Shown: piece after piece, positions 2 through 48,417 of the stretch
How the letters are laid out: the number at the start of each line of letters is the position of its first letter
How positions within the stretch are numbered: the first letter of the stretch is position 1
NCBI GenBank assembly: GCA_021513715.1
Contig: CP084167.1
Coordinates: forward strand, 2,400,001 to 2,464,000
DNA length: 64,000 nt
Source: Candidatus Heimdallarchaeum endolithica
GTDB taxonomy: Archaea; Asgardarchaeota; Heimdallarchaeia; Heimdallarchaeales; Heimdallarchaeaceae
Direction: 5' to 3'
The notes under the pieces: generated by a model
Databases searched by the model: none
What the model was told of the DNA's origin: nothing
What the model saw: only the letters and a program-made list of their open reading frames with translations
Translations under genes and position numbers: made by a program

Positions 2-1096
2 ATAGAATTCACTACAACTGTATTAACAAGATTCAAAATTCGTTTTCCACAAGAGAATTGCGATATTAAAGGAGGAGAGGAGTATCATATTTACTTGGAA
101 AATTTGAGTAACGATACAGTAGGCAAACAAGGAGTTGATTTACCTATCACTCAAACAAAGGGTGGGAAACTAGAATTCACTTTATCTCATCGATTGAGGA
201 AGTTGTTCAGTGTTGGAGACAAAGTAAAAGTTAAAGTTGTTAGCGCTACTGAAGAATTTTATTCTCCAGATAATTTTTTAGGAGAAAAACCAAACGAGCT
301 AACAGACTTTTTAGGAAAAAAATTGTCAGTTGTTTTTCTTTATAGAATAGGAGAAAATAGAGGTTTAATTGCTAGCGAATGCGAAAAAGAAGAAAAAATG
401 AAGGAACTAGAAAGCATAGAAGAGACATATGCTTTACTTACTCCAGAAAAGACAAGAAAAGGAAATAATGGGAGAATAAAAATACAAACGGAAATGTATG
501 ATGATCATGCCGTTACTCGTTTTTTCATAAAAATGAAAAAATATAATTTGTTTAAGCAGAAGGAAGGTTTCTATCCTGTGGATTATTATTTATTAATTAA
601 GAACCAAGAACCAATTACTGTATACGTTTGTCTAATGGTTATTACCACGCATGGGGTGTATAAATTCCTATTAGCATCAAAAATAGTCAAAGAGTTTGAG
701 CGATTTCTTACTTCAAAATTGAATATTTATACTATTAGAGATAAATTATACGAATTAGAAAAAAAAGTAGAAAAAATAGTTTATGACTCTTTCAATTCTA
801 AGTTAAGAAAAGAAGAGGAAGAGATAGGCAACTACTTTTCGACTAGTACTATGCTTGAGATAATGGATCATTCTTCTTCCTATGTGCTCAAAGCAATTCT
901 TGCTCTGAACACTAATAATATAATTTCTAGAGATGGGATAGAAGAATATGTGGAAAAGGAATATAATATCAGTGATAAGGAATACATCACGTATTCTCTA
1001 TTGTATTTATTGGAAAAGGGGATAATACGAAGGATTACTGCAGCCAATGGCAAAACTTGTTTTTCATTGGTGAAAATAGATGACAAGAAAAAGTAA
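2..1096 (+). CDS. 5'-truncated DNA-binding protein: tandem AbrB/MraZ-like N-terminal region and C-terminal winged helix
   Basis: The frame is open from base 2 (IEFTTTVLTRFKIRFPQENCDIKGGEEYHIYLEN...), so the TTG at 95 may not be the start. GKLEFTLSHRLRKLFSVGDKVKV is AbrB-like; the C-terminal VLKAIL...YSLLYLLEKGIIRR...GKTCFSL is wHTH-like. Confidence 0.6.
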   Translation: MEFTTTVLTRFKIRFPQENCDIKGGEEYHIYLENLSNDTVGKQGVDLPITQTKGGKLEFTLSHRLRKLFSVGDKVKVKVVSATEEFYSPDNFLGEKPNELTDFLGKKLSVVFLYRIGENRGLIASECEKEEKMKELESIEETYALLTPEKTRKGNNGRIKIQTEMYDDHAVTRFFIKMKKYNLFKQKEGFYPVDYYLLIKNQEPITVYVCLMVITTHGVYKFLLASKIVKEFERFLTSKLNIYTIRDKLYELEKKVEKIVYDSFNSKLRKEEEEIGNYFSTSTMLEIMDHSSSYVLKAILALNTNNIISRDGIEEYVEKEYNISDKEYITYSLLYLLEKGIIRRITAANGKTCFSLVKIDDKKK

Positions 1097-1895
1097 ATTA
1101 CTAACTCTCTTCTCATTTGAAGGGGGAACAGGAAAAACCATGCTCGCGTTAAACATGGGAAAAATGTTTGTGCGAGAAAAAAAGAAAACACTAGTTGTTG
1201 AATTGGATATATTTAATCCTAGCTATCACTATCTTCTGAATAAAAAAGTGGAGAAGGAGAAATATTTAACCCATTGGTTATTAAAAAGGAATATTTCAGA
1301 CTCTTCAAAACGTAAAAATTTCGATGACTGTATATTAGAGCATGAAACAGGAATAGATTTTGCTATTGTAGAACCTGTTTTGACTCTCAATGAAATCAAT
1401 AATAGATATACTACACTCACTGCAGACACATTCCTAGATTTTTTGATGGGCTTGATAGTAGAAATGAAAATAAAATACGACTTTATAATCATAGATTGTC
1501 CTAGTACTTTGAATATATTCAGCGTAAATGCAATATTTGTAGCTGATAAACCAATATTAGTCGCAAGTCCCAACTTGTTCTTGCTAAAAGCGAATGCGGA
1601 AAGGATAGCCCATTTCCCAGAGTATGTTAAAATCAAACCTTTGGACATCATCGTAAATAATTTCAAAAACACATCCACACCAAATGAAATGAAACAAAAA
1701 ATAATGGATATATTGAATCTATCTTTCGATAATCAAATAATCATATTAGAACATTCTACTACTTATTTTAACGATGTGGTAACAGAAAAAAAACTGTTTT
1801 TAGATCCAGAACGAGACTATGTATTATATAATTGCATTTTCAACTATGTACGCTCTTATACAAGAGAACAAAAAGACCCCCCAATTCAATTATAA
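1080..1895 (+). CDS. MinD/ParA-family ATPase
   Basis: Deviant Walker A SFEGGTGKT, switch I VVELDIFNPS, Walker B YDFIIIDCPS; overlaps the upstream gene end. Confidence 0.9.
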   Translation: MTRKSKLLTLFSFEGGTGKTMLALNMGKMFVREKKKTLVVELDIFNPSYHYLLNKKVEKEKYLTHWLLKRNISDSSKRKNFDDCILEHETGIDFAIVEPVLTLNEINNRYTTLTADTFLDFLMGLIVEMKIKYDFIIIDCPSTLNIFSVNAIFVADKPILVASPNLFLLKANAERIAHFPEYVKIKPLDIIVNNFKNTSTPNEMKQKIMDILNLSFDNQIIILEHSTTYFNDVVTEKKLFLDPERDYVLYNCIFNYVRSYTREQKDPPIQL

Positions 1896-6281: not shown

Positions 6282-6308
6282 TTTATATATAGGGGTTAGC
6301 TTTTTAAA
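6282..6308 (+). promoter_or_regulatory. Candidate archaeal TATA boxes upstream of the structured RNA
   Basis: TTTATATA at 6282-6289 and TTTTAAA at 6302-6308; the latter is ~25 nt before the first hairpin. Confidence 0.35.
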
Positions 6309-6330
6309 GAGAACGATAAGCGTACATTTT

Positions 6331-6525
6331 ATGAGTCAATTTAGACACTATCTCTTGTCTAATACCAACCCCAAGTACTTGAGTAGTGCTAAATTGGCTC
6401 ATGTTGCCTTGTCTCTGATACAAGGATCTGACTTCCTTTTAGACCCAGTAGAGAGTTTCAGCAGATATGGGCAACGCACAAAAAATGAGAGGGTGAATTC
6501 CTTCACTCTCTCCACTCTCCTTTTT
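6331..6525 (+). ncRNA. Candidate structured non-coding RNA (two abutting 72/73-nt hairpins plus a terminal hairpin and T-run)
   Basis: Stems 6331-6354/6381-6402, 6403-6418/6458-6475 and 6487-6497/6502-6512. Mismatches are G-U wobbles on the + strand or 1-nt bulges, and GC is above the flanks. Confidence 0.6.
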
Positions 6526-6530
6526 ATTTA
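6487..6530 (+). terminator. Hairpin followed by T-rich tract
   Basis: GAGAGGGTGAA-TTCC-TTCACTCTCTC, then CACTCTCCTTTTTATTTA. Confidence 0.45.
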
Positions 6531-6757
6531 TTTTATTCAGGTGGAAAAATGTTCGACTTTTTGAAAATTGGATTTCTATTTCAGTCTGTACTTAAGAAAG
6601 AAAAGGTAAACGTTTCTTTTTTAATTTACAATTATTGTATATCTATCAAACTCATCCAGTTAAAAGTTCTGGAATTTTCTTCCCCATTTAAAAACAAATT
6701 AGGTAATTATCATTTTAAAGTGAAAAATATTAGTTTTAGGAAATAGGTGAAAGATAA

Positions 6758-9589
6758 ATGAAAAAGCAAACAATAATTGTTTTCTGTATTATCTCCTTGT
6801 TTTTAATCTCTGGATTAAAAGCGCAAGAAGTAATAAAAACTGATTGTGAAAAATGCAATGAAACACAACTAATAGAAGAAGGTGCGATAGTAGCTGTTAA
6901 ATGTTTAGATAAAACTGTCGATGGAGCAGAAATTGTAAATAAATACAGTAATTTAGGTTTACAGATTTGCAATGTAACTAATCATGATTTGTTTCAGGAA
7001 TTTATTAAAAAGAATAATTTAGTTTATTCTGTAGTTAACACGAAGATAAAAATGAAATCTGCTATGCTTTCGGCTCAAAAGCAGATTGGTTTAGGGTATA
7101 AAGAAGAAGATAATATTCTTCCTGATCCAAATACAACAGTAGCAATATTAGATACTGGAATTGATCTTACTCATAACTACTTCAATAGTTCTCAACTTCT
7201 TCATTGGAAAGACTTTGTTGGTTCTTCAGTGGAAGAAGGACATGATATTTATCTTTCACCTACTGATATTAATGGTCACGGAACAGCAATTGCATCTATT
7301 ATTGCTGGAAACTGTACTGTAAATAATAGTATATTAAAATTCGAGAAAAATGTCACAAAAGGGACTTTAAAATTTGTTTCATATCTTGAAGAAACAAATA
7401 ATGAATTTTTAACCGTTAACGTTAGTTGGTCATCTAATAACAACATTAGTGTGGGTATCTACGACTTAGCAGAAGAGAAGATACGATATTCCTCTGAAAC
7501 TTGTTCAAATGGTTCTTTTGTTTGGAATCGGAGGATATACAATTCAGCGAGAGAGTATCTTATCTTCTATGTAGCAAATGAGGAAGGAGAAAATGTAGTA
7601 GAGGTAAGAGGAGAGTTATCTTTCCCCACACTTAATACTTTCAAGGGAGTAGTTCCTGGAGCAAATATAGTTGTATTAAAAGTTTTAGATGATCAAGGTT
7701 ATGGAAATGTGACTACGCTCTTAGAAGCTTTGGATTATCTATTGACTATAAAAGAAGAATATAACATCAAACTAGTCAATTTGTCTTTAGGTTTTAGTGA
7801 GAGAATAGTAGCGGTAGATGATGCAGTTACAGCAATAGTAGAGGAAGGGATTTTTCCTGTCGTTGCTGCGGGAAATGGAGGAACATCGGGAGAAGTCTAT
7901 TCTCCAGGGAGTAATGATTATGCTTTAACTGTTGGAGCAGTAAATGAGAGAGCAGAAGTAGCTTATTACAGCAGTCAAGGATGTGATTGCCCAACTAGAC
8001 AGATTAAACCAGATGTTTTAGCTCCTGGGGGATCATTCGGAATGGCTTTTCGTCCCATAATTGTGGCAAAAAGTGGAACATATAACGAAGTCAAACAAGT
8101 GAAAGGAACAAGTTTTGCTACTGCATTTATGACTGGAATGGTCTACAGAAAAGTGATAGAAGAAAAATGGGAATATAATAAAGAAAATGTACGAAAAGTG
8201 AAATATCTTATTCTTATGAGTACATACCAATCAAGAGCAAATAACTATAACGGAGACAATGATGGAATAGCACAAGAACCCGATTTAACAATTTACGCAA
8301 AAGACAGAGTAGAAGGATGGGGTATATATGGCTATGCTCCAGTTGTAAACTATACTTTTTCAGAAAGCGAAAAATCTTACTCTGATGCAAAATATTTATC
8401 ACCTATACACATTAACCATTATGATGATTTTGAGTATCAAAGAATTTACGTTGCTGAATTATGGACACCTAAAAATACTACAGGAAGCTATAGAATAGAA
8501 TCTCAAACTAATGGATTTGTATCAAATTCTACTGATTATACTCCTCATCTTGAAAATTGGACTTTTGTTCCTAAATTATCTAATTCTTCAGATGAGTACG
8601 GAAATCCAATTTTCTTTACTCCAGAATTCGCTGAAAGGGAAGATTTAATTTACTTTAATTTAAGTCCTGGTAGCCATTACTACTTTGTAGTTGCAATTAA
8701 TAGATACTTAGATTTAGAACCTTATAAGAGTCTGGGTAATTTTTGCCTTGATACATTTGAAAAAGGAATGCTAATTTCAAATTATTTTATTTATAAAACT
8801 TGGTATGATATTCATCCTAAAGTAATTCTAGAAAATAATACTGTTTATTTTGATGAGGTTGTAAGAGGAAAAATCGAATACCCTCAATATACGAAAATGA
8901 TTAGATTTGAGATGAATGGAATAGATTGCTTGAATTACTTTAATGCTACAACTCATGAGTTCGAAATATATGGATTAAGTGAAGGATCATATCAATTGGA
9001 GTATATTCTTGAATTAGGAAAAACGAGAAAAATTTTCTGGTTTCCTGGGATATATGTAGATAAAAGCCCACCAAAACAATTTTTCTCATTTATTGATAAT
9101 TGCACTATAAAAGAGAATACTACCTATGGTTTTACAACAAAAGATTATTCTCCAACCAACATTACTATCTATATTGACGGGAAAAATTTTGGTTCAAAAA
9201 TTCTGGATCCAGGTTTTGATACAATAAGCATTACAATAAAACCGAAGGAATTACCTTATGGTTATCACAATCTCACAATATTCGCTGTAGATTTATTTAA
9301 TAGAACATTATTTGTCAATTATACTTTTGTAACTTTAGAAAATTACGAAGAACCTACTGAACCTACTGAACCTACTGAACCCACAGAGCCTACTGAACCC
9401 ACAGAGCCTACTGAACCTACAGAGCCTACAGAGCCCACTGAACCTACTGAACCTACTGAACCTACAGAACCTACTGAACCCAATAATTTTGGGAAATACC
9501 CATCGATGAAATATTTAATAGGTGCAAGTGTAATAATCGCATTTCTTGCTGCAGGGTTTATTTTGATATACAAGCGTTATGGAGGTTAA
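6758..9589 (+). CDS. Membrane-anchored S8 (subtilisin-like) serine peptidase
   Basis: Signal peptide; catalytic ILDTGID, HGTAIAS and GTSFATA motifs; oxyanion AAGN; EPT linker; C-terminal TM helix with a basic tail (YKRYGG). Confidence 0.93.
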   Translation: MKKQTIIVFCIISLFLISGLKAQEVIKTDCEKCNETQLIEEGAIVAVKCLDKTVDGAEIVNKYSNLGLQICNVTNHDLFQEFIKKNNLVYSVVNTKIKMKSAMLSAQKQIGLGYKEEDNILPDPNTTVAILDTGIDLTHNYFNSSQLLHWKDFVGSSVEEGHDIYLSPTDINGHGTAIASIIAGNCTVNNSILKFEKNVTKGTLKFVSYLEETNNEFLTVNVSWSSNNNISVGIYDLAEEKIRYSSETCSNGSFVWNRRIYNSAREYLIFYVANEEGENVVEVRGELSFPTLNTFKGVVPGANIVVLKVLDDQGYGNVTTLLEALDYLLTIKEEYNIKLVNLSLGFSERIVAVDDAVTAIVEEGIFPVVAAGNGGTSGEVYSPGSNDYALTVGAVNERAEVAYYSSQGCDCPTRQIKPDVLAPGGSFGMAFRPIIVAKSGTYNEVKQVKGTSFATAFMTGMVYRKVIEEKWEYNKENVRKVKYLILMSTYQSRANNYNGDNDGIAQEPDLTIYAKDRVEGWGIYGYAPVVNYTFSESEKSYSDAKYLSPIHINHYDDFEYQRIYVAELWTPKNTTGSYRIESQTNGFVSNSTDYTPHLENWTFVPKLSNSSDEYGNPIFFTPEFAEREDLIYFNLSPGSHYYFVVAINRYLDLEPYKSLGNFCLDTFEKGMLISNYFIYKTWYDIHPKVILENNTVYFDEVVRGKIEYPQYTKMIRFEMNGIDCLNYFNATTHEFEIYGLSEGSYQLEYILELGKTRKIFWFPGIYVDKSPPKQFFSFIDNCTIKENTTYGFTTKDYSPTNITIYIDGKNFGSKILDPGFDTISITIKPKELPYGYHNLTIFAVDLFNRTLFVNYTFVTLENYEEPTEPTEPTEPTEPTEPTEPTEPTEPTEPTEPTEPTEPTEPTEPNNFGKYPSMKYLIGASVIIAFLAAGFILIYKRYGG
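9350..9481 (+). repeat. 9-bp coding tandem repeat, (EPT)x14 + EP
   Basis: GARCCYACW units with synonymous variation. Confidence 0.95.
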
Positions 9590-48339: not shown

Positions 48340-48417
48340 TGGCGGGCCAGGCAGGATTTGAACCTGCGATACCCTGCTCCGAAGGCAGGTGCCTTATCCG
48401 TGCTAGACTACTGGCCC
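48340..48417 (-). tRNA. tRNA-Arg (TCG), CCA encoded, no intron
   Basis: The reverse complement GGGCCAGTAGTCTAGCACGGATAAGGCACCTGCCTTCGGAGCAGGGTATCGCAGGTTCAAATCCTGCCTGGCCCGCCA folds as a cloverleaf; anticodon loop CT-TCG-GA. Confidence 0.96.

Follow-up and report, generated by a model that had tools for sequence, protein, structure and literature searches.

In pyrBI-type attenuation of Escherichia coli, a leader reading frame of 44 codons spans a hairpin and a U-rich tract that lie just ahead of the structural genes, and in long-lived bacterial mRNAs of the ompA kind the message is stabilised by hairpins at its 5′ terminus. To our knowledge, regulated leaders are rare among archaea, and we know of nothing on the expression of the 30-kb giant-gene operons of aloposons, mobile elements that count among the oddest in the closest archaeal relatives of eukaryotes. 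Translation coupled through overlapping leader ORFs, as in mok/hok, and translational coupling in general have been reviewed (PMC12548453). The published aloposons of Ca. Heimdallarchaeum carry the tandem giants Otus and Ephialtes, upstream genes that include one for a ParA-like ATPase, and a tRNA downstream (Wu et al., 2022; PMC8813620); the passages of that paper dealing with aloposons contain no mention of the leader considered here, its frame or the small ORF beside it.

The stretch of DNA analyzed here (the window; 64,000 nucleotides, G000:C1:2400001-2464000) contains an aloposon-type mobile element of a Heimdall-group Asgard archaeon. Aloposons are recognized by tandem genes for proteins of 3,000-6,000 aa with a ParA-like gene upstream and a tRNA downstream; the window holds giant ORFs of 3170 and 6099 aa, a ParA-like gene and a tRNA-Arg in this arrangement (Table 1), and, by the gene content given in the paper's passages on aloposons and HeimV2, these are the same elements (PMC8813620). 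An ABC/FtsX gene pair also lies among the genes around the leader, a domain scan of the neighboring genes returned DUF4145, Mrr-like, ParA-like and S8 domains, and ParA and winged-helix proteins are encoded by the element. The leader itself, at window positions 6331-6525 on the + strand, lies directly 5′ of the giant-gene payload and is a real, previously unannotated and conserved part of aloposon elements.

The aloposon leader may be likened to that of pyrBI in that its frame crosses a hairpin and a U-rich tract, and translation rather than the peptide would steer the polymerase and the downstream ribosomes. It differs in being archaeal, in its leaderless start, in a length of 77-112 rather than 44 codons, in having its hairpin 8 nt from a T-run that is not conserved, and in a frame that ends inside the next gene. 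The likeness to ompA would consist in a stable hairpin that starts at the first base of the predicted transcript, leaving no single-stranded overhang, in an mRNA that has to be long-lived; here, however, a conserved reading frame has its start codon within the hairpin, the transcription start is a predicted one, and the decay enzymes of archaea are different. As in mok/hok, an upstream frame overlaps the next start out of frame, and metastable local hairpins are combined with a long-range lock on the start; unlike mok/hok, the leader does not encode a hydrophobic toxin-like peptide. The leader peptides are basic and hydrophilic, most so in copies 3-5, and a type I toxin-antitoxin mRNA, which calls for a small hydrophobic membrane peptide together with an antisense RNA, was rejected on the ground of the peptide.

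Table 1. Features of the aloposon leader region (window positions) and the five leader copies.
Feature	Position	Strand	Remarks
ParA-like gene	1080-1895		
Distal TATA-like box TTTATATATA	6282-6291	+	In copies 3-5, a 16-nt palindrome containing TTTATAAA at the same distance
Proximal TATA box TTTTTAAAGA	6301-6310	+	-30 to -21 from ATG 6331
Leader reading frame	6331-6564	+	77 codons and TGA; overlaps the start of the next gene by 16 nt
Hairpin 1	6331-6402	+	Lower stem 6331-6344/6389-6402; -27.7 kcal/mol; start codon forms the first three pairs
Apical motif CAACCCCAAGTAC	6366-6378	+	Invariant 13-nt loop; N-P-K-Y in frame
Short hairpin CCTTGT...ACAAGG	6407-6425	+	Conserved alternative to the long hairpin 2
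Motifs ACCCAG and CAGCAGATNTGGG	6443-6471	+	Conserved single strand
3′ hairpin	6487-6512	+	11 bp
Tail CACTCTCC, then T5 run	6513-6525	+	Tail identical in all copies
Shine-Dalgarno site AGGTGGA of next gene	6539-6545	+	GGTG at -9, within the genome-wide peak
Small 65-codon gene	6549-6746	+	Unannotated; stop lies inside the Shine-Dalgarno site of the S8 protease gene
S8 protease gene	6758-9589		
tRNA-Arg	48340-48417		
Copy 1	The window copy		
Copy 2	Near 2.239 Mb, same genome	-	
Copy 3	45.5 kb upstream of copy 1, same genome		
Copy 4	Ca. Heimdallarchaeum aukensis genome		
Copy 5	JGI contig Ga0366835_1001915		

Copies of the leader and their surroundings

Five copies of the leader were found (three in the window genome, a fourth in H. 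aukensis and a fifth on a contig from a JGI metagenome), and these five sequences represent only three independent lineages of one genus. Every copy follows variable cargo and stands directly 5′ of the payload in the same orientation; the gene that comes after it is a small ORF in copies 1 and 2 and a giant gene in copies 3-5. A MITE or dispersed repeat was rejected, as the genome contains just three copies, each heading a giant-gene payload; scattering through the genome had been named in the initial annotation as a result that would count against the RNA. Two of the elements lie in tandem, the leader of copy 3 preceding that of the window (G000:C1:2360774 to 2406331).

When the elements of copies 1 and 2 were compared by blastn, three long matches only and two short ones (112 and 52 bp) were obtained. 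Two of the long matches cover backbone genes (80-89% identity), and the third extends from -111 to +404 around the leader module (79% identity). The proteins that flank the leader are only 26-38% identical between elements, the S8 proteins of copies 1 and 2 are 34-38% identical, and the giants are barely alignable. Since the leader and the four upstream backbone genes are the sole long stretches of DNA common to the two elements, the leader is a natural handle on aloposon regulation. The very high identity of the leaders of copies 1 and 2, which includes 93 identical bases, could be due in part to recombination. Recombination would not account for the conservation in copy 3, whose backbone protein is only 33-34% identical and in which ACATTTTATGAGTCAAT, the 13-nt loop, TTGACTCAT, CCTTG, CAGCAGATNTGGG, TTCACT and CACTCTCC are unchanged. 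The cargo differs from element to element and the RNA is constant, which speaks against the earlier suggestion of an antitoxin for a HEPN-like cargo.

Scans with exact motifs of 185,579 species genomes, IMG/VR and the JGI metagenome contigs gave a further copy only in H. aukensis; two other metagenome matches fall within coding DNA and were set aside as chance. A covariance model of hairpin 1 recovered only the four known copies from 83 genomes of the class (a 26-bit match in genome G012 is coding sequence), and BLAST of the leader against 60 relatives yielded nothing further. The 364-aa protein of the backbone occurs in only two of 400 Asgard genomes. A word-index protein search with the N-terminus of the giant gave one relative, on the JGI contig that yielded copy 5, and a full HMMER profile search gave three more distant aloposon-like cassettes, in which the Heimdallarchaeum leader was not found with the covariance model or nhmmer.

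The order in the distant cassettes is ParA, an ORF, S8 and giants. Cassette L045 (GCA_019057815.1 JAHLWR010000019.1) has a ParA-like gene, a 183-aa ORF, an S8 protease, an Otus-like protein and a second giant; L047 (JGI Ga0366836_1005742) has a 214-aa ORF, an S8 protease and an Otus-like protein; and L044 (ENA ERZ4220366) has a 133-aa ORF, an Otus-like protein and a second giant. The 133-aa ORF of L044 is related to the 214-aa ORF of L047 (E 2e-6), and the upstream regions of these two cassettes have a TAAT(A/T)ATTCC start in common.

RNA fold and reading frame of the leader

The 195 nt at 6331-6525 fold at -68 kcal/mol with a z score of -7.17 on the + strand, as against -2.83 on the - strand, and none of 200 shuffles folded as well as the + strand; in copy 3, the corresponding z scores are -6.46 and -4.04. 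The reading in the initial annotation of a strand-specific RNA structure that is borne by the element and heads the giant-gene operon was upheld, the structure being conserved, and so was the view that it is of no known RNA family: the best matches in Rfam 15, which includes riboswitches, ribozymes, C/D and H/ACA sRNAs and tRNA-like families, reach 13-23 bits against gathering thresholds of 47-96 (E 0.7-7.7). ARAGORN detected no tRNA at the leader.

The proposed hairpin 1 is part of the minimum-free-energy fold. The 14 bp of its lower stem are retained in the five copies (all 56 cells paired); four pairs vary and are still paired, one of them being U-A, G-U or A-U among the copies. The departures from Watson-Crick pairing in this stem are all G-U on the + strand, with zero A-C in the five copies, in keeping with the earlier argument for an RNA. 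A shuffle control on the stem was not significant (81/500), a comparison that has low power with three lineages. In each of the copies, the AUG is base-paired within a stem of -20 to -28 kcal/mol; by predicted folding, it is free in the first 35-55 nt of the growing chain. The apical motif is identical in all five copies, third codon positions included, and only three exact sites for it are present in the genome.

In the middle of the leader, the local alternative hairpins that had been drawn (TTAGACA/TGTCTAA and CCTTGT/ACAAGG) do exist. The latter appears in copies 3-5 as CCTTGA...TCAAGG, with U-A changed to A-U, and in copy 2 as a shifted, perfect 6-bp hairpin. Hairpin 2 in its drawn form (6403-6475) was found in copies 1 and 2 only; copies 3-5 have a different middle domain closed by ACCCAGA/TCTGGGT, a pairing that copies 1 and 2 can form only weakly (4 bp). 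The resemblance for which hairpins 1 and 2 had been called twins is at the level of chance (z 0.13).

Ten pairs of the 3′ hairpin are retained in all copies, two of them with swaps on both sides (G-C/A-U and A-U/G-C), and two further pairs alternate between G-U and A-U. Hairpin 1 and the 3′ hairpin stay paired through G-U and compensatory changes. The proposal that a third hairpin and a T-run close the unit stands for the hairpin, and for the T-run in copies 1 and 2 only, where it is T5; copies 3-5 have T3 followed by T5 or T4, and 8 conserved nt separate the hairpin from the run. An intrinsic terminator requires a G+C-rich hairpin that is directly followed by a U-run and is conserved among relatives; a terminator or attenuator of the bacterial type was rejected because of the 8-nt spacer and the unconserved T5. 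No antiterminator pairing conserved across the copies was found, though local alternative hairpins are present, and the pairs that the Shine-Dalgarno and start region can form with the tail or the 5′ end amount to 5-7 bp only and are unconvincing.

The overlapping 77-aa ORF, in which a coding signal had been named as evidence that would refute the RNA, does carry such a signal. A frame that begins at the very base of hairpin 1, its ATG starting with the first base, is open in all five copies (77 codons in copy 1, 84 in copy 2, 111-112 in copies 3 and 4, and 112 in copy 5) and covers all of the hairpins, and the other two frames contain 6-15 stops. Dinucleotide shuffles stay open with P of 0.010 (copy 1), 0.0026 (copy 2) and 0.0006 (copy 3), and the probability that the frame is open by chance in two independent lineages together is ~6e-6. 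The spacing of the anchor motifs differs by -9, +21, +6, -6 (copies 2 and 3) and +3 (copies 4 and 5); five of five differences are multiples of 3, expected in ~0.4% of cases by chance, and the anchor motifs are in the same phase in copies 2-5. The conservation is imperfect, as copy 1 has a +1 frameshift in its last third relative to copies 2-5. In every copy, the frame runs across the Shine-Dalgarno site of the first payload gene and its start codon, ending 16-78 nt inside that gene. Thus, the call of a structured non-coding RNA can conceal a conserved reading frame.

Promoter geometry and the next gene

In leaderless mRNAs of archaea, a TATA box precedes the start codon by ~26-30 nt and a Shine-Dalgarno site is absent. 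Both TATA-like boxes noted earlier (6282-6291 and 6301-6310) are present upstream of the leader; the proximal one sits at the genome-wide peak and no GGTG precedes the ATG. In this genome, TTTAWAWA starts before first ATGs peak at -30/-29 (25 and 24 counts over a background of ~4), and GGTG before first ATGs peaks at -12 to -9. The TATA box of copy 1 lies at -30/-28 and that of copy 3, TTTAAATA, exactly at -30 to -23. The position of the proximal box predicts a transcription start at or next to ATG 6331, and by the start-site rules of the genome the leader would be a leaderless first cistron followed by Shine-Dalgarno-led genes. Because both peaks are sharp genome-wide, leaderless and Shine-Dalgarno-led genes are both common in this Asgard archaeon; its 16S rRNA ends in GGATCACCTCCT. 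Ahead of the proximal TATA box, copies 3-5 have a perfect palindrome of 16 nt, GGTATTTATAAATACC (L015:1303-1318 in copy 3), which is a candidate for a regulator site or a second TATA box.

A Shine-Dalgarno-led gene follows within 25-80 nt of the leader. Copies 1 and 2 agree in all of the 17 nt up to and including its ATG, and in copies 3-5 an AGGTGGA likewise stands before the giant gene. The small gene of the window has a counterpart of 67 codons in copy 2 (38% identity, alignment z 9.1, one in-frame indel); an FKNKL motif is common to both, the shuffle P for the open frame is 0.002, and no Pfam match was found. A second promoter within 6525-6758 was considered and rejected, as the conservation there is that of the small ORF.

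Candidate roles of the leader

Two kinds of selection, on a peptide or on an RNA, may be read from the leader. Residues that are identical between copies are encoded by the identical codon in 75% of cases, compared with 49-62% in control genes, and the synonymous divergence between copies 3 and 4 is 0.10 in the leader and 0.17 in the giant gene. Their non-synonymous divergence is about equal (0.044 and 0.042), as would suit a real small protein gene of 77-112 aa whose peptide acts in trans and whose RNA fold tunes its own translation or stability. The leaderless-type promoter, the open frame, the in-frame indels and the 44% of residues that copies 2 and 3 share (alignment z 8) accord with such a gene, and on the last count the peptide itself could be functional. 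The pN/pS of copies 3 and 4 (0.45, on 18 changes) fits peptide selection or neutrality. On the other hand, most of the identical residues fall in blocks conserved at all three codon positions, and residues change radically wherever pairing is kept; between copies 1 and 2, for example, R-H-Y becomes G-Y-E with the pairs intact. The C-terminal third of copy 1 is replaced through the frameshift, and the end of the frame is not conserved and extends into the next gene. In addition, the peptide has no Pfam match, an ESM Atlas language-model recognition score of 1475 (most real families reach 2300), a mean pLDDT of 54 in a single-sequence AlphaFold2 model, and no exact counterpart among public gene calls. 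A trans-acting protein thus seems rather unlikely to us, if not to be dismissed lightly; in our reading, selection acts on the RNA fold and requires an open frame, and any constraint on the sequence of the peptide is at most weak.

A free-standing ncRNA of ~200 nt with its own promoter and an oligo-T terminator, in which the open frame is an accident, would be suggested by the strong conserved structure, by an invariant loop and tail of the kind expected of binding sites, and by the T5 after the 3′ hairpin of copies 1 and 2. However, an accident would have to produce the joint open frame of two independent lineages and length differences that are multiples of three throughout, and the T-run is not conserved in copies 3-5. 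The T/A-rich spacer could host a second promoter; in copies 1 and 2, however, the Shine-Dalgarno site follows the T-run by 14-24 nt, which leaves no room for a canonical one. With a frame that is open from the first base of hairpin 1 in five of five copies, in-frame indels and the leaderless promoter geometry, the free non-coding RNA of the initial annotation is improbable, and the leader is more likely to be a translated, tightly folded first segment of the mRNA. Still further from likely is an element acting at the level of DNA, with the ATGAGTCAAT/ATTGACTCAT sites as operators, a ParA partition site or a recombination site. Three copies of TTGACTCAT occur in copies 3-5, the first site overlaps the predicted start in a position typical of archaeal repressors, and ParA and winged-helix proteins are among the products of the element; yet the stem complementarity goes beyond the 10-nt site, its deviations are all G-U on the + strand, the 3′ hairpin covaries, folding is strand-asymmetric, and a DNA site would leave the conservation of the frame unexplained. 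We consider equally remote a guide RNA of the bridge-RNA or omega-RNA type that directs integration of the element. The RNA does belong to the conserved backbone, but its matches of at least 13 nt to its own element and flanks are no more than expected by chance (E of at least 0.15), it takes part in none of the repeats of the window, no complement of the conserved loop is present in the genome with up to one mismatch, variation falls in the stems rather than the loops, and no IS110/TnpB/IscB-type domain is present among the neighbors scanned. The guide role proposed in the initial annotation was therefore abandoned.

We regard it as an evenly balanced proposition, judging from sequence and predicted folds, that the leader is a leaderless, translated and structured first cistron that gates or protects the 30-kb payload transcript. 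A feasible model may be that the transcript begins at A6331, the first base of the ATG, or at a neighboring base, and that its 5′-terminal AUG remains free until the polymerase has completed the 3′ arm of hairpin 1 ~60 nt further on; as the AUG would be free only before this arm exists, a ribosome could load only during transcription. The loaded ribosome would trail the polymerase through the hairpins and the U-rich tract and past the next Shine-Dalgarno site and start codon, keeping the nascent 30-kb transcript coupled to translation and opening the next start site. After its passage, or if none has been loaded, hairpin 1 would close, locking the AUG into a 5′ end without overhang and protecting a message that needs many minutes to make. 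The leader peptide itself probably matters little in such a scheme. A stable hairpin on a leaderless AUG could also mean that the frame is rarely or never translated.

Of the switchable attenuator that had been proposed, an altered form survives: the hairpin and T-run are not a conserved canonical terminator, and any switch would probably act through translation of the leader frame. Attenuation at the T-run site is weakly grounded, because T5 is present in copies 1 and 2 only and lies 8 nt from the hairpin. It is also tempting to speculate, as a doubtful extension of the translated-leader model, on a previously undescribed archaeal control of leaders by coupled translation, in which the leaderless AUG is locked by a hairpin, a co-transcriptional ribosome escorts the polymerase, and the 13-nt loop docks a factor of the element or the host that decides on expression of the giants. 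If true, a leader that is both leaderless-translated and hairpin-locked would be a compact system for testing transcription-translation coupling and the protection of messages in an Asgard archaeon.

Termination in archaea involves oligo-T tracts and FttA, and ribosome coupling is thought to counter factor-dependent termination (PMC13681488). Compared with ordinary ORFs of the same genome at equal T content, sense-strand runs of T6 or longer are ~3 times rarer in the giants of all three elements (0.2-0.36 versus 0.97 per kb; window 9596-37404 for the present one). This depletion, which is expected if internal oligo-T terminators are selected against, indicates that such signals are a real constraint on giant genes. 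Immediately before the giants of the window, the 3′ end of the S8 protease gene (9332-9511) contains 14 overlapping 9-nt repeats (GAACCTACT and variants) that encode a Glu-Pro-Thr linker.
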